A stretch of DNA of 9,743 bases from a virus (lineage: Duplodnaviria; Heunggongvirae; Uroviricota; Caudoviricetes): IMG/VR virus record IMGVR_UViG_3300029623_000287; one strand, 5' to 3'. The position numbers and the translations under genes are program-made. Under the pieces are notes generated by a model. It had not been told where the DNA came from and made no database searches. It saw only the letters and a program-made list of their open reading frames with translations. Shown here piece by piece: positions 2,666 through 8,939 of this stretch (the stretch's first letter is position 1; each line of letters begins with the position of its first letter).

Positions 2666-3370
2666 ATGGCTACATCGACAGTAATTCCAGGAGACATCAC
2701 CACGTTAAAGGGAGATGTCAGTAAAGCCAAGGAAGATATTTCCTCAATTAACGGAAAAGTATCAACGCTTCAGGCTGATATGACCAGTGCAAAGCAGGAT
2801 ATCAGCACCAGATACACAAAAACTGAAGTTGATAATAAGCTGAAAAACAAACTGGAAGTGAACGCTCTGGAAAGCGGTCGTTATGGTGGAGATTTTTACC
2901 CGTTGACTGGCCGTGAAGCGTTTTATTTGTGGGGATTGGGCACGACTACAGCGGCGGCAAACCTTTATCTTAATCCTGACCCTGCAATTTCGTCTGTGCT
3001 GCGGTCAACATCGTCTATCCGCTATAAACATTCAGTAGAGACGATAGATTCAGAGCACGCCGATCTCATTTTCAGGATGCGCCCTGTGTGGTACAGGTCG
3101 CAATGCGAAAATGACAGGCGCGATTGGGGATTCTATGGATTGATTGCCGAGGAAGTAGGAGAAATTGCCCCCCAGTTTGTACACTGGCGATCAGCTAACG
3201 AAGATGATGCACCGGAAGCTATTTCCAGCAATGGCCTTGTTGCCGAAGGTGTAATGTACGAACGTCTGGTTGTTCCACTGATTCACCATATCCAGAAACT
3301 GACTGAAAGATTTGATGAACTTGAGTCAGAATTGAAGTTGTTATCAACTTCCCGAAGCGATATCGGATAA
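2666..3370 (+). CDS. Tail-fiber-like protein (234 aa): N-terminal coiled-coil repeats plus C-terminal intramolecular chaperone / peptidase S74-like autoprocessing domain
   Basis: A GAGGGAGA Shine-Dalgarno site lies 4-5 nt upstream of the ATG. The N-terminus has heptad-like repeats (DITTLKGDVSKAKEDISSINGKVSTLQADMTSAKQDIS). The C-terminal half carries the motif series recalled for S74 chaperone domains of phage fibers and tailspikes: a Ser...Lys pair spaced i/i+5 (SSIRYK), RPVWY, GLIAEEVGEIAPQFV, and a terminal helix (LIHHIQKLTERFDELESELKLL). Confidence 0.65.
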   Translation: MATSTVIPGDITTLKGDVSKAKEDISSINGKVSTLQADMTSAKQDISTRYTKTEVDNKLKNKLEVNALESGRYGGDFYPLTGREAFYLWGLGTTTAAANLYLNPDPAISSVLRSTSSIRYKHSVETIDSEHADLIFRMRPVWYRSQCENDRRDWGFYGLIAEEVGEIAPQFVHWRSANEDDAPEAISSNGLVAEGVMYERLVVPLIHHIQKLTERFDELESELKLLSTSRSDIG

Positions 3371-3380
3371 AGGAGGAGTA

Positions 3381-3674
3381 ATGGATATAACACCTTTTCT
3401 TCATGCGCTTTGTGCTGTGGCTGCGCAGGTACTGATTGGTCTTTTTACCGGAAACTGGGTTTACGGGGCGATAGCCGGTTGTACGTTCTTCATTGCGCGT
3501 GAACACACCCAGGCAGAATATCGCTGGATTGAAATGTTCGGGCATGGCAAGCGAATGAATATGCCGTGGTGGGGCGGTTTTGATCCGCGCGCGTGGGATG
3601 TGGCAAGCCTGATGGATTTTGCTGTGCCGGTGGTGGCGTGTCTGCTGCTCTGGCTGTTGGTTAATCGTGGGTGA
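3381..3674 (+). CDS. Small integral membrane protein (97 aa), function unknown; last + strand gene before the convergent sit operon
   Basis: A strong AGGAGG Shine-Dalgarno site lies 4 nt upstream of the ATG. Hydrophobic segments at roughly residues 8-38 and 78-94 flank a Trp/Arg-rich loop (EYRWIEMFGHGKRMNMPWWGGFDPRAWD). Stop TGA at 3672-3674. Confidence 0.6.
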   Translation: MDITPFLHALCAVAAQVLIGLFTGNWVYGAIAGCTFFIAREHTQAEYRWIEMFGHGKRMNMPWWGGFDPRAWDVASLMDFAVPVVACLLLWLLVNRG

Positions 3675-3765
3675 AAAAAGGTGAGCTGTATATGCAACGG
3701 AGGAAGAACCCCCGTTGCTGGAAGCCAGGAAAAAGTATCGGGTGTTGCTGTCCTCGGATATTGTG

Positions 3766-4623
3766 CTAATTGGGTGATAACAGATCCTGTGTATGGGAGT
3801 TTCCCTTTTTGCGTGCGTTGATGCTGGTAACGGCAAACGTCATGATGAACAAAACCGCGAATAAGACGACAATCGTCGGAGCTGGTGCGCTGTCGATAAA
3901 AAAGGACAACCAGACACCAGTCATTGACACTATTACCGATATGCCAGTCGCCAGTAGGAGCGCAATGTGAAAGCGTTGTGTCAGGAGTACCGCAATGGCG
4001 CCAGGCGCAATGAGCAGAGAAATGGAGAGAATGATACCTACCGCTTTCAGCGTCGCCACAATGGTCAGAGAGACCATGCACAGCAGCCCATAATGCAGCC
4101 ATCTCGTATGCAAACCGCTTACCTGCGCCTGTTGATAATCAAAGCTGAACAGCAAAAAATCCCGCCATTTTACGCTAATAACAAGTGTAACCAGCCCGGC
4201 AATAATCATCGTCTGGATTATATCGCCGATGGTTATCCCGAGCATGTCGCCGAAAAGAATATGGTCAAGATGTACGTCTGGTTTGACTGCAATATACAAG
4301 ATCAGACCTGCGGCAAACATGCCAGAAAAAACAATCCCCATCACTGTATCTTGCTTGATTCGGCTGTTGTCTTTCAGGTATCCCGTCGCCACCGCGCAGA
4401 ATACTCCGGCGACGAATGCCCCTGTAGCCAAAGGTAACCCCAGAATCCAGGCAAGCACGATGCCAGGAAAAACCGCATGACTCATCGCGTCACCCATCAG
4501 TGCCCAACCTTTCAGGACCAGAAAGACCGACAGCAGCGCACAGGGTATGGAAACTAACAGTGAAATCAGCAGTGCGTGACTCATAAAGGTGAACTGCAGT
4601 GGCTCCAGTAATAATGCCATCAT
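3766..4623 (-). CDS. sitD: Mn2+/Fe2+ ABC transporter permease SitD
   Basis: 285-aa polytopic membrane protein, paralogous to the upstream permease. Its ATG overlaps the sitC stop by 4 nt (ATGA). It is the last gene of the four-gene operon. Confidence 0.92.
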   Translation of the reverse strand: MMALLLEPLQFTFMSHALLISLLVSIPCALLSVFLVLKGWALMGDAMSHAVFPGIVLAWILGLPLATGAFVAGVFCAVATGYLKDNSRIKQDTVMGIVFSGMFAAGLILYIAVKPDVHLDHILFGDMLGITIGDIIQTMIIAGLVTLVISVKWRDFLLFSFDYQQAQVSGLHTRWLHYGLLCMVSLTIVATLKAVGIILSISLLIAPGAIAVLLTQRFHIALLLATGISVIVSMTGVWLSFFIDSAPAPTIVVLFAVLFIMTFAVTSINARKKGNSHTQDLLSPN

Positions 4624-5477
4624 GAGCGATCCTCCAGCGCCTTATGTGCACGCCGACGATTTGCCAAAAGCCCATGGGTGGGCGCAAAGACAAATGCTAA
4701 AAGAAACAGCAGTGTCTGCGCCACCACGATGATTCCACCTGTCGCGCCGTCCAGAAAGTAACTGACCCACGCGCCGAGGAAACTGGTTACACTGCCAATA
4801 GTTACAGCAATCATGAGCAGGCGGGGAAAACGATCGGTTAACAACCATGCTGTTGCACCGGGAGTCACCACCAGACAGATCACCAGAAAGGCACCAACCG
4901 TTTGCAGCGCCGCAACGGTCGAAACCGACAGCAGGGTGAAGAAGAGGAGTTTTAATCTGCCCGGATGCAATCCAATAGCACGGGCGTGATTCTCGTCGAA
5001 AAAGGTCACCATAAGATCTTTCCATTTGAAAAAAAGCACGATGATCGAGAGAATGCCAATGATAGTGAGTTGCAGGATATCCGCCGGATCGATTGCCAGA
5101 ATATTGCCCAGGACGATGGTCTGAATGTTCACAGATGTCGGGTTCAATGACACCATAAACAGCCCCAGGCCAAAAAAGGACGAGAAGATCAGGCCGATGA
5201 TGGCATCTTCTTTTAAGCGGGTGCGTTGGTTAAGAAACAGCATGCTGCCCGCAGCCAGTCCGCCGGAAAAGAAGGCTCCCAGAGAAAACGGAAGCCCCAG
5301 CATATATGCCCCCGCAACACCCGGGACAATAGAGTGCGACAACGCATCGCCAATCAGCGACCAGCCTTTTAGCATCAGATAGCATGACAGGAAAGCGCAG
5401 AGACCGCCGACCATCGCCGAGACCCACATCGCATTGAGCATATATTCATAGCTGAAGGGTTCCAGTAGCACGTTCAT
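4620..5477 (-). CDS. sitC: Mn2+/Fe2+ ABC transporter permease SitC
   Basis: 285-aa polytopic membrane protein of the ABC-3 (metal-type) permease family. Its ATG overlaps the sitB stop by 4 nt. Confidence 0.92.
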
Positions 5478-6301
5478 CTTTCTTCCCTCTGCACCGCTGA
5501 CGGTCGATGAGCCACAAAAGGGCGTTCATCGTCAGTAATAATGCTTTCTTCCGAGCCGTTAAGTGTGACATGGCGCAGTACGCCGCTAAAAGCCAGCTCC
5601 AGGTTCTCGGCTGTAAAAGTGGTGTCTGTCGGCCCGCTTGCCAGGACGGTGCCTTTGACCATGACCGTATAATCGCAAAATGTCGTGACGGATCCGAGAT
5701 TGTGTGTTGAGACAAGCATCGTTTTGCCTTCCGCGCGTAACTCCCTCAACAGGCTGATGATTTTGGCTTCGGTTTTCACATCAACGCCAGTAAAAGGTTC
5801 ATCCAGCAGGATCACATCACCCTGCTGTGCAATCGCTCTCGCCAGAAAGACGCGTTTCTTTTGTCCACCGGAAAGCTCGCCGATTTGTCGATGGCGAAAA
5901 TTCACCATATCGACACGTTCCAGCGCATCGGTGACAATTTGACGATCCCTCTTTTTGGCGATACGCAACATACCCATATGCCCATAGCGGCCCATCATCA
6001 CCACATCTTCCACCAGTACAGGAAATGACCAGTCAACCTCTTCTGACTGAGGGACGTAGGCAACCAGGTTTTTCTGTAACGCCTGTCGCGTGGGAATACC
6101 CAGAACAGATATCTTTCCGCTGGTCAGACGCACAAATCCCATAATCGCTTTAAACAACGTCGATTTTCCGGAACCGTTTACCCCAACCAGAGCGGCAATA
6201 GATCCACTTGGTACTGTGAAGGATGCATCGCGCAGTGCTGTGTGCCCGTTACGCCAGGTGACAGTAACATCATTAACGACAATGCCTGCAGATTGCATCA
6301 T
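5474..6301 (-). CDS. sitB: Mn2+/Fe2+ ABC transporter ATP-binding protein SitB
   Basis: Walker A ([10 protein letters not shown]), ABC signature (LSGGQKKR) and Walker B (VILLDEPF) are all present. The start overlaps the sitA stop (TAATGATG). Confidence 0.95.
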
Positions 6302-7215
6302 TATTTCTCCCTTTTCCCGGCTTTAATTCCCTGTACCAGCGTACTGGTAGTAACCTTAAGAAGGTCGATATACGTCGGTACCGGGCCGTTTTCTGTGCTC
6401 AGTGAATCGACATAGAGCACACCGCCGTAGTGTGCGCCGGTTTCACGCGCAACCTGACGCGCTGGTTTATCGGAAATCGTACTCTCGCTAAAGACTGCCG
6501 GGATATGATTTTTCTTAACTATATCAACAACCTTACGTACCTGCTGCGGTGTTCCTTGTTGATCGGCATTAATCGGCCACAGATAAAGCTCTTTTAGCCC
6601 CAAATCGCGTGCGAGATAAGAAAAAGCCCCTTCACTGGTGACCATCCATCGCTGATTCTCAGGGAGTTCCGTAATCTGCTTACGCAGGGGGGCAAGGGTT
6701 TGGGTAATCTTGGCTTTATAAGTATCGGCATTGCGTTGGTAGGTTTGTGCATTTGCCGGATCGTATTTTATCAACGCATCACGAATATTATCGACGTAAA
6801 TCAGAGCATTATCTGGCGACATCCATGCATGGGGGTTAGGTTTGCCCTCATAGGGTCCTTCGGTGATCCCTACAGGCGTCACACCCGAAGAGACAATTAC
6901 TTCTGGAACCCCATTGAGATGCTGGTAAAAGCGTTGGAACCACAATTCCAGATTCATACCATTGGCGAGAATCAGTTGTGCCCCCTGCGCACGTTTAATA
7001 TCGCCAGGGGTAGGCTGATACTCATGAATTTCTGCACCAGGCTTGGTTATGGATGAGACTTCTGCAGCATCTCCTGCCACGTTTTTGGCCATATCCGCGA
7101 TGATGGTAAATGTTGTAATGACCTTGAATTTTTCAGTTGCACTTGCCTGAAATGCGATCGAGCAGGTGAGTGCGAGGCCCCCCAAGAGCATGGTTACTTT
7201 TTTTATTGAGTGCAT
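6301..7215 (-). CDS. sitA: Periplasmic Mn2+/Fe2+-binding protein SitA (cluster A-I substrate-binding protein)
   Basis: 304 aa with an N-terminal signal peptide ([26 protein letters not shown]). The sequence matches SitA as I recall it (EKFKVITTF..., [12 protein letters not shown]..., NPHAWMSP...). It is the first gene of the operon, directly downstream of the Fur and MntR boxes. Confidence 0.95.
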
Positions 7216-7247
7216 AATTTAGTACCTATAGTGAGCAAAATTAGAAC

Positions 7248-7269
7248 AAACATAGCAACGGCTATGTTT
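7248..7269 (-). promoter_or_regulatory. MntR-type operator (perfect 9-4-9 palindrome AAACATAGC-aacg-GCTATGTTT) in the sitA promoter region
   Basis: The perfect inverted repeat is read directly, 33-54 nt upstream of the sitA ATG. It matches the MntR box architecture recalled for enterobacterial mntH/sitA promoters. Confidence 0.7.
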
Positions 7270-7291
7270 TATAACATAACCTATACAAAAT

Positions 7292-7310
7292 GAAAATGAT
7301 TATCATTAAC
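7292..7310 (-). promoter_or_regulatory. Fur box in the sitA promoter region
   Basis: gaaaatgattatcattaac matches the 19-bp Fur consensus GATAATGATAATCATTATC at 16 of 19 positions, including the central AATGATxATCATT core. It lies 77-95 nt upstream of the sitA ATG. Confidence 0.7.
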
Positions 7311-7655
7311 AACTTTGGGGCCCAAAACAGGGATTAGGTTGTTTCCTACTGGCGACGTGTTATTGAGGAAAAAAGTAAGGCAGCTAGTAGGCTTTGAAAT
7401 AACGTTTTGCGGTTGGCTGATGCAATTTCGAGAGTGCATGTATTGAATAATTTTCGACCGTTATTGTTTTCACGCGTAACACCATGAAAAGACTACTTAT
7501 CTGTTGGGGTGTTTTTTGGGGCATATATGGGACAGAAATAGGCCACAGATAGATAGTAAGATCGAACTCAGGATGCTTTTGAAAAAATGTAACTATCTGA
7601 AAAAACCTAGAAAGTGCCAAGGAAACCACAGGATGAGAAAAAACACTTGTGAATT

Positions 7656-8939
7656 ATGGACTTCCAGTTATATTCGCTCGGCGCAGCGTTAGTGTTTCAT
7701 GAAATATTTTTTCCTGAATCATCAACGGCAATGGCGTTAATTCTGGCAATGGGAACCTATGGTGCAGGTTATGTGGCACGTATTGTCGGAGCATTTATTT
7801 TCGGCAAAATGGGCGACAGAATAGGGCGTAAAAAAGTGCTCTTTATTACCATCACCATGATGGGGATCTGTACCACCTTAATTGGTGTGTTACCGACTTA
7901 TGCACAAATTGGTGTTTTTGCCCCCATCTTGCTGGTGACGCTGCGTATTATTCAGGGGTTGGGTGCAGGTGCGGAAATTTCCGGTGCCGGTACGATGCTG
8001 GCGGAATATGCGCCAAAAGGTAAGCGCGGAATTATCTCCTCATTTGTGGCTATGGGAACTAACTGCGGAACCCTGAGCGCAACGGCAATCTGGGCCTTTA
8101 TGTTCTTCATTCTCAGTAAAGAGGAACTGCTGGCGTGGGGATGGCGTATACCTTTCCTGGCGAGCGTTGTCGTGATGGTCTTTGCTATCTGGTTGCGTAT
8201 GAATCTGAAAGAAAGCCCGGTCTTTGAGAAGGTTAACGACAGCAACCAACCGACAGCAAAACCTGCACCTGCTGGTAGCATGTTCCAGAGCAAATCCTTC
8301 TGGCTGGCAACAGGGCTGCGTTTTGGTCAGGCTGGTAACTCCGGTTTAATTCAGACTTTCCTTGCAGGCTATTTAGTGCAGACGTTATTGTTTAACAAAG
8401 CAATTCCAACAGATGCATTGATGATCAGTTCGATTCTCGGCTTTATGACCATTCCGTTCCTTGGTTGGTTATCCGATAAAATTGGTCGCCGGATCCCGTA
8501 TATTATTATGAATACCTCTGCGATTGTGCTGGCGTGGCCAATGCTTTCTATCATCGTAGATAAAAGCTATGCCCCGAGCACCATTATGGTTGCACTGATT
8601 GTGATTCATAACTGTGCGGTGCTGGGATTATTTGCTCTGGAAAACATTACCATGGCAGAAATGTTCGGCTGTAAAAACCGCTTTACCCGGATGGCCATTT
8701 CTAAAGAAATTGGTGGTCTTATCGCTTCCGGTTTTGGTCCTATCCTGGCGGGTATTTTCTGCACCATGACGGAATCCTGGTATCCGATCGCCATTATGAT
8801 CATGGCATATTCAGTGATTGGTTTAATCTCTGCGCTGAAAATGCCAGAAGTGAAAGACCGTGATTTAAGTGCGCTGGAAGACGCTGCGGAAGATCAACCG
8901 CGTGTTGTAACAGCTGCGCAACCTTCCAGAAGTCTTTAA
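7656..8939 (+). CDS. ydfJ: MFS transporter, metabolite:H+ symporter (MHS) family, YdfJ-like; N-terminally truncated relative to full-length family members (possible pseudogene)
   Basis: 427-aa 11-12 TM protein. The first ATG at 7656 is preceded in frame by TGA at 7650-7652 and has no Shine-Dalgarno site. The protein begins inside the conserved TM1 motif (MDFQLYSLGAALVFHEIFFP, compared with ProP ...EWFDFGVYGFVAYALGKVFFP), so about 25-30 N-terminal residues appear to be missing. The conserved GDRIGRKK loop 2-3 motif is present. Confidence 0.88.
   Translation: MDFQLYSLGAALVFHEIFFPESSTAMALILAMGTYGAGYVARIVGAFIFGKMGDRIGRKKVLFITITMMGICTTLIGVLPTYAQIGVFAPILLVTLRIIQGLGAGAEISGAGTMLAEYAPKGKRGIISSFVAMGTNCGTLSATAIWAFMFFILSKEELLAWGWRIPFLASVVVMVFAIWLRMNLKESPVFEKVNDSNQPTAKPAPAGSMFQSKSFWLATGLRFGQAGNSGLIQTFLAGYLVQTLLFNKAIPTDALMISSILGFMTIPFLGWLSDKIGRRIPYIIMNTSAIVLAWPMLSIIVDKSYAPSTIMVALIVIHNCAVLGLFALENITMAEMFGCKNRFTRMAISKEIGGLIASGFGPILAGIFCTMTESWYPIAIMIMAYSVIGLISALKMPEVKDRDLSALEDAAEDQPRVVTAAQPSRSL

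Follow-up and report, generated by a model that had tools for sequence, protein, structure and literature searches.

Introduction

Orthologues of the SitABCD transporter in avian pathogenic Escherichia coli, Shigella and Salmonella transport Mn2+/Fe2+ in the sub- to low-micromolar range, contribute to peroxide resistance, intracellular growth and virulence, and are repressed by Mn-MntR and Fe-Fur (reviewed in PMC3852070). The operon has also been seen as cargo of prophages. In enteroaggregative E. coli (EAEC) 042, sitABCD was named among the cargo of a prophage, with its position given as 'at the tail end' (Chaudhuri, 2010; PMC2808357). A more recent report describes sitABCD on 70% of the lambda phages released by infant-gut E. 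coli, notes that every lambda phage with sit has a Fur box upstream of the operon, and calls the operon a moron (Mathieu et al., 2020; PMC6969025). For the Perceval prophage of adherent-invasive E. coli (AIEC) LF82, the published account states that sit is transcribed 4-13x over the prophage background in the lysogen and that Perceval forms plaques (Misson et al., 2023; PMC9928086). The GenBank record of phage 21 explicitly annotates sit as well. Here, we analysed a 9,743-nucleotide (nt) stretch of viral DNA (IMG/VR record IMGVR_UViG_3300029623_000287), referred to in its full length as the window, in which a sitABCD operon at positions 3766-7215 stands next to phage tail-fibre genes.

The arrangement of sit on a prophage is already documented (Chaudhuri, 2010; Mathieu et al., 2020; Misson et al., 2023), and the case in the window is real but ordinary. 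The phenomenon itself, the Fur box, expression in a lysogen and presence in plaque-forming phages have all been published. What we add is small: the limits of the sit cassette (3751-7394), a perfect MntR operator, an attachment (att) core in the host gene ydfJ, and a recombination joint between a sit module of the phage 21 type and an integration module of the mEp460 type. The window nevertheless offers a clean and well-delimited case in which a metal-uptake operon under host regulation is carried by a temperate phage, with a bearing on how fitness traits of the extraintestinal pathogenic E. coli (ExPEC), AIEC and Shigella type spread by lysogeny.

Comparison with the closest described systems

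Phage 21 (OL657228.1), a classical lambdoid phage, resembles the sit region in its layout. It is 98.98% identical to window 3369-7470 over 4.1 kb and has the same order of a central and a side tail fibre, a small open reading frame (ORF), a 97-aa membrane protein, convergent sitDCBA and the promoter region. However, phage 21 has ~2 kb more small genes before its phage attachment site (attP) and integrates in icd with another integrase, whereas in the window prophage the sit module is joined directly to a ydfJ-type attP arm and the integrase is of the mEp460/HannyBb type. The sit-bearing gut coliphages and Perceval carry the operon in the same slot at 99.6-99.7% identity (99.7% for the operon of Perceval), but their homology to the window ends at 7471 and their attachment regions differ. 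An MntR operator is not mentioned in the excerpts of the published accounts of these phages (PMC6969025; PMC9928086).

Two further phages, HannyBb (PP925841.1) and mEp460_ev081 (LR597641.1), share the other part of the locus. Both have the attP arm, att core, integrase, excisionase and exonuclease module of the window prophage, and HannyBb additionally shares the tail-fibre end and the gene of the 97-aa protein. In contrast to the window prophage, both are without sit and have a segment with a serine DNA invertase in the slot.

The same four genes and promoter region also occur on ColV/ColBM plasmids, as in pAPEC-O2-ColV (NC_007675.1), which is 97.5% identical over 3761-7412. The plasmid form is nevertheless a separate allele group in a non-phage setting, with an eno fragment, crcB and aerobactin genes as neighbours; it is spread by conjugation and not by lysogeny, and with 1060 plasmid places among complete E. 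coli genomes it is a very common form. YfeABCD of Yersinia pestis and SitABCD at the edge of Salmonella pathogenicity island 1 (SPI-1) have the same transporter architecture, but they are orthologues from other genera and are not known to be carried by phages.

On the combined evidence of gene content, operator sequences, cassette limits, occurrence in phage records and a position between the att sites of a prophage, we are highly confident that 3766-7215 is an intact Mn2+/Fe2+ importer operon and that it is a non-essential moron, which occupies the b-region slot of a temperate phage of the lambda-like kind.

An intact sitABCD operon convergent to the phage late genes

The operon is 3,450 bp long, lies on the minus strand and extends exactly from the stop codon of sitD to the start codon of sitA, with all four ORFs intact. 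sitA (6301-7215, minus; 304 aa) encodes the periplasmic metal-binding protein (PF01297 ZnuA, 8.9e-86) and sitB (5474-6301, minus; 275 aa) the ATPase. The two inner-membrane permeases are encoded by sitC (4620-5477, minus; 285 aa; PF00950 ABC-3, 5.6e-83) and sitD (3766-4623, minus; 285 aa; PF00950 ABC-3, 1.1e-76). The sitA/sitB junction is a 1-nt overlap (TAATG), and sitB/sitC and sitC/sitD each overlap by 4 nt (ATGA). The original prediction of a complete sitABCD operon with translationally coupled overlaps was therefore borne out, as was its claim that sit is oriented opposite to the phage late genes: sit is on the minus strand and converges on tail-fibre genes that are on the plus strand.

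The individual proteins agree with this assignment. SitB scores 593.6 bits against the equivalog model NF011630 ('manganese/iron ABC transporter ATP-binding protein'), well above the cut-off of 393, and its translation contains a Walker A motif, the signature LSGGQ and the Walker B motif ILLDEP. The closest solved structure to SitA is YfeA of Y. pestis (5uxs; E = 4e-125), to which it aligns without gaps, and the motifs around the presumed metal site, including YVDSLS, are conserved between the two. We take the His/His/Glu/Asp metal ligands of this protein class to lie within those conserved motifs. RefSeq labels the identical DNA as sitA, sitB, sitC and sitD, and the order A-B-C-D with two ABC-3 permeases and one ATPase is that of a SitABCD/YfeABCD-type importer. 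Nucleotide identity of >97% to E. coli alleles suggests that this copy transports Mn2+ and/or Fe2+. In such a system the periplasmic SitA would bind the metal, SitB would power transport and the channel would be formed by SitC and SitD; by analogy with the orthologues in the literature, the host might gain metal acquisition and peroxide resistance in the gut or during intracellular growth.

The operon lies inside an att-bounded lambdoid prophage

The genome of E. coli GmF052 (NZ_CM183655.1) matches the window over its full length and served as the reference for its context. The only differences between the two are one single-nucleotide polymorphism (T/C at 7647) and a masked run of Ns in the window. 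The corresponding DNA of GmF052 makes up the right end of an uninterrupted lambdoid prophage of ~47 kb, which extends from int beside rspB to the right attachment site (attR) in ydfJ. Its annotation begins with integrase, excisionase, exonuclease, kil, sieB, a helix-turn-helix repressor-like gene, a dicC-like gene, O, RusA and the Q antiterminator; it continues with two tRNAs, holin, lysozyme, Rz, the small and large terminase subunits, portal and protease; and it ends with the decoration and major capsid genes, a full tail set, J, lom, the tail fibres and sitDCBA. This is the gene order of lambda: int/xis stand at one end and the tail fibres and b region at the other, and att repeats flank the whole. 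The integrase abuts rspB; at the opposite end, sit is followed by a 5'-truncated ydfJ. Thus, the phage genes and sit belong to one element that is continuous from int to sitDCBA, as had been supposed from the window.

Beyond the cassette, window 7395-7648 is the attachment-site arm of the ydfJ-integrating phage group (the P arm of attR; no strand), and in HannyBb and mEp460_ev081 its counterpart, at 86% identity, stands immediately before the att core and int. The attR core, which forms the right prophage boundary, occupies 7649-7667 (no strand; window 7648-7667 reads GTGAATTATGGACTTCCAG). Its repeat is imperfect, with 18/19 bp shared between TGAATTTATGGATTTCAAG at the left attachment site (attL) of GmF052 (locus L003, 17745-17763) and TGAATTATGGACTTCCAG at window 7649-7667. 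The single T/C difference at 7647 (T in the window, C in GmF052) is 2 nt left of this core. Homology to free phages stops at 7667, and the split ydfJ junctions found elsewhere start at the same point.

The adjoining host gene shows what the insertion did. ydfJ' (7656-8939, plus) encodes a chromosomal major facilitator superfamily transporter (TIGR00883, 6.5e-136) whose 5' end is truncated by the prophage and which RefSeq tags as 'incomplete; missing N-terminus'. The missing first 29 codons (MTIEKHERSTKDLVKAAVSGWLGTALEFM...) are at attL, between rspB and int, and joining of the two flanks in silico gives one continuous ydfJ reading frame. The genome context thereby confirms the prophage boundaries, at which ydfJ is split by the imperfect att repeat (18/19 bp). 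The original prediction had placed sit between the tail fibres and the chromosomal junction; this position holds, but the junction is not directly at sitA, as the attR core is 434 bp further on, in ydfJ.

Because the att core is 434 bp beyond sitA, sit is inside the att-bounded element. This speaks against the possibility that sitABCD is a chromosomal island merely beside the prophage, one that does not move with the phage. Such an island would account for the place of sit at the extreme edge of the element, where it adjoins the host chromosome and runs opposite to the phage genes in transcription, and some chromosomal sit copies do lack the junction between the 97-aa gene (orf97) and sitD. 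The empty sites of strains without the prophage, however, speak against it. The reconstructed 622-nt empty site is uninterrupted at the rspB/ydfJ junction in 2011 of the 5426 complete E. coli genomes, in some of them at 99.8% identity, and in the five of these for which the full annotation was listed, no gene other than rspB and ydfJ is present at the junction. Furthermore, the operon is found between the tail fibres and attP within 27 phage genome records, and the one inspected copy without the orf97 junction, in E. coli TA8571, also ends a degraded prophage. We consider the island explanation extremely improbable. In the lambda-like moron that we favour, the slot follows the end of the tail-fibre/late operon and precedes the phage attachment site, and since the phage integrates through attP, the slot would come to stand at the extreme right of the prophage, ~430 bp from attR in ydfJ.

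The ydfJ site is very heavily used. Most of the genomes without an empty site are split at exactly the same point of ydfJ, including DH5a and roughly 3,360 others, and ydfJ flanks are also present in records of Stx2a-converting phages. The occupant of the ydfJ site beside rspB in K-12 is presumably the cryptic defective prophage Qin, a remnant of ~20 kb; we know of no structural module and no sit in Qin. The annotation of GmF052 has the gene names dicB, dicC, ydfA, ydfB, hokD, rem and rrrQ in common with Qin.

Limits of the sit cassette

The limits of the cassette follow from a comparison with HannyBb, whose attP and int are those of the window prophage. Its homology to the window ends at 3750 and restarts at 7395, and from this gap, which mEp460_ev081 shares, the sit cargo cassette is delimited to 3751-7394 (minus; 3,644 bp), comprising sitABCD and a promoter region of ~180 bp. 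Its left end is 15 nt past the sitD stop codon and its right end ~180 bp upstream of the sitA start codon. Within 3751-7394 there is no terminator; the nearest hairpin (3694-3716) belongs to the phage backbone. HannyBb shares window 3380-3750 (97%) and 7395-7667 (86.5%) and has another insert of 1.8 kb in between, which indicates that sit is dispensable for such a phage.

In both sit-less relatives, HannyBb and mEp460_ev081, the slot is filled by this 1.8-kb segment, which encodes a serine DNA invertase along with some small ORFs (2690-4505 in each of the loci L005 and L004). The invertase is Pin/Hin-like and the segment adjoins the tail-fibre genes; presumably it is a tail-fibre switching module, and the slot would then alternate between host-range and host-fitness cargo.

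Nearly equal limits were found in two other settings, at 3746-7403 in a degraded prophage beside uspF-ompN in E. coli TA8571 and at 3761-7412 in plasmid pAPEC-O2-ColV (97.5% identity, as above). The TA8571 locus (L006, 5263-8861) has the order trkG, a ParB-like gene, a lom fragment, sitDCBA, uspF and ompN, and the entire structural module of the prophage is gone. As this prophage has lost its structural module and still has sit, sit has been kept while the phage decays.

The agreement of the limits within ~15 bp per end in three unrelated contexts is what a discrete unit would give, and together with a conserved ~80-bp flank that is on the opposite side of sit in TA8571 it raises the question of whether the cassette is an autonomous mobile element, transposon- or integron-like, that was inserted by its own machinery. 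The contents of the cassette argue otherwise. No transposase, integrase or recombinase is encoded within 3751-7394, where the four sit genes fill the cassette, and a search of 3300-7700 for terminal direct or inverted repeats gave only short matches at chance level, none of them at the boundaries. On the ColV plasmid the neighbours are the eno fragment, crcB and aerobactin genes and not the ends of insertion sequences. Moreover, the limits coincide with a functional unit, from promoter to stop codon, which selection alone would preserve, and the window has a homologous-recombination joint in a shared flank (see below). An autonomous element is thus very improbable in our judgement. A moron cassette without mobility genes of its own would spread with its carrier phage and could move between phages by recombination in conserved flanks.

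Predicted regulation of the operon

Two operators are predicted just upstream of sitA. The MntR operator (7248-7269, minus) is a perfect palindrome, AAACATAGC-N4-GCTATGTTT, with 0 mismatches; it is 33-54 nt upstream of the sitA ATG, and 0/200 shuffled sequences match. The Fur box (7292-7310, minus; GTTAATGATAATCATTTTC) has 2 mismatches to the 19-bp consensus, and again 0/200 shuffles match. A candidate sigma-70 promoter (7268-7296, minus), read by eye as TTTTCA-17 nt-TATAAA, fits between them, with its −35 hexamer overlapping the Fur box and its −10 hexamer abutting the MntR box. The Fur box and the perfect MntR palindrome lend support, at the level of predicted sites, to the proposal that this moron has its own regulated promoter.

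With a promoter, a Fur box and an MntR operator of its own, the cassette would place sit under metal-dependent control in the lysogen: silent when iron and manganese are plentiful, on under metal starvation. The hexamers, like the kinetics of repression, are predicted. This control would be independent of phage late transcription, which opposes sit and should stop at a hairpin with a 10-bp stem (3694-3716, no strand) between the convergent late operon and sitD. The minus strand of 3676-3770 folds at −24.2 kcal/mol (z = −2.67), and we regard the hairpin as a candidate bidirectional terminator. It is part of the phage backbone and not of the sit cassette, as it falls within 3693-3750, which mEp460_ev081 and HannyBb have in common.

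An 81-aa ORF (7384-7629, minus) upstream of and co-oriented with sitA was considered as a gene and rejected: it has no PHROG match, lies within the attP arm and is probably spurious. In phage 21, a 41-aa hypothetical protein is annotated at the end that is homologous to this ORF.

Distribution of sit and present status of the element

The sit operon was found in 27 phage genome records, which include the classical phage 21 and phage Perceval; it is in the same slot and orientation throughout, and at least 99% identical in 26 of the records. That 26 phage records, those of phage 21 and Perceval included, carry an operon of ≥99% identity in this slot supports the view that sit should be transducible in principle. 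Among the 5426 complete E. coli genomes, 2384 contain sit, at 1683 chromosomal and 1060 plasmid places, and the chromosomal copies are mostly at prophage ends. The junction between the backbone (orf97) and sitD, as in the window, is present in 1190 genomes. The full arrangement of the window, with a sit phage at ydfJ, is found in only 9 complete genomes.

No observation contradicts the reading of the operon as a moron of a lambda-like temperate phage, but several set limits to it. None of the sit-bearing phage records that match just right of sitA runs into the ydfJ-type attP arm, and the exact combination is therefore seen only as a prophage. The GmF052 prophage contains three small pseudogenes (a dicB fragment, DUF1737 and DUF1327), which might mean that this individual element is not inducible. 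With respect to transcription, the hairpin at 3694-3716 is without a clean U-tract, and a consensus promoter scan upstream of sitA gave nothing convincing and did not return the hexamers read by eye, as the scanner demands a T at position 6 of the −10 hexamer.

The pseudogenes and the lack of a phage record with the exact combination of sit and the ydfJ-type attP arm would fit an element that is now a defective, immobilised prophage with sit as domesticated cargo, no longer transducible by its own phage. The interruption of ydfJ at the same point in DH5a and the many genomes noted above would fit as well, and the closest phage record covers only 65% of the early and head region. Against this, the annotation gives all core modules from int through the tail fibres as intact, and the pseudogenes affect accessory genes; the element has both halves of the att site, and ~47 kb is a normal lambdoid size. 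We think it unlikely, albeit a serious alternative, that the element is defective, and this alternative concerns its present status and not its origin.

Proposed exchange at the slot

The rest of the prophage is a mosaic that is closest to PhiR42_1 and mEp460-type phages, and the sit module seems to have been joined to it just right of the cassette. A segment of ~80 bp (7395-7474) is common to phage 21, where it is beside sit and 2 kb from the attP of that phage, and to HannyBb and mEp460_ev081, where it is beside the attP arm; it thus links phages with unrelated integrases. Within window 7395-7474, the left half is phage-21-like and the right half HannyBb-like, the trace expected of homologous recombination within a shared linker, which is the route that we propose for the joint. 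In TA8571, the segment is 81% identical and is on the opposite side of sit. Outside the window it was located at ~11630-11705 of locus L002, ~4505-4585 of L005 and 8855-8918 of L006, the TA8571 locus.

One tentative extension, which we would rate as rather doubtful, is that the slot is a defined exchange site in which the hairpin segment on the left (3693-3750) and the linker on the right (7395-7474) serve as recombination 'boundary sequences'. If this were true, the boundary sequences would explain how one 3.64-kb sit cassette came to be in lambdoid prophages at several attachment sites, namely ydfJ, icd, beside uspF-ompN and next to a Bcr/CflA transporter gene.

The linker was also considered as an RNA hairpin resembling sib of lambda and was rejected in this role. 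When either strand is folded, the copies of the window and of phage 21 do no better than shuffled sequences (z = +1.47, +0.93 and +0.16), and HannyBb reaches only z = −1.45. An Rfam search of the whole window returned no match.

Phage genes left of the cassette

The remaining genes of the window, all on the plus strand, belong to the late operon of the phage. Nearest to sit, the gene at 3381-3674 encodes the 97-aa putative membrane protein (phrog_1443, 1.8e-58), which is so annotated in phage 21. It closes the late operon and is part of the phage backbone, as window 3380-3750 is 97.3% identical to the sit-less HannyBb. Upstream of it, 2666-3370 encodes a tail fibre domain protein that ends in an intramolecular chaperone domain (PF13884 Peptidase_S74, 4.3e-06; phrog_3299, 1.5e-139), and 2375-2656 is a small phage gene of the tail-fibre module (phrog_1361, 8.3e-47) whose counterpart is a 282-nt coding sequence (CDS) in HannyBb and a 279-nt CDS in phage 21.

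The side tail fibre gene occupies 1-2375 (PF08400, 1.2e-63), and its first 6 nt precede the window. In the window it appears as two ORFs, at 16-2106 and 2109-2375. A real frameshift at ~2106 was considered and rejected, since the masked N-run shifts the frame and thereby creates both ORFs: the run of 22 Ns at 1989-2010 stands for 14 bases, which are AAATGCAGCACCGC in GmF052, where the gene is one CDS of 2373 nt (790 aa). phrog_1419 matches residues 1-657 of the side tail fibre with E=0, and its C-terminus matches the ORF at 2109-2375. The gene contains internal direct repeats of 231 bp (526-756 and 715-945; 84% identity) that encode Ala/Ser/Thr-rich repeats of the 'KTSETNAK' type, and the high GC content and AT skew of the first kilobase of the window are due to these internal repeats.

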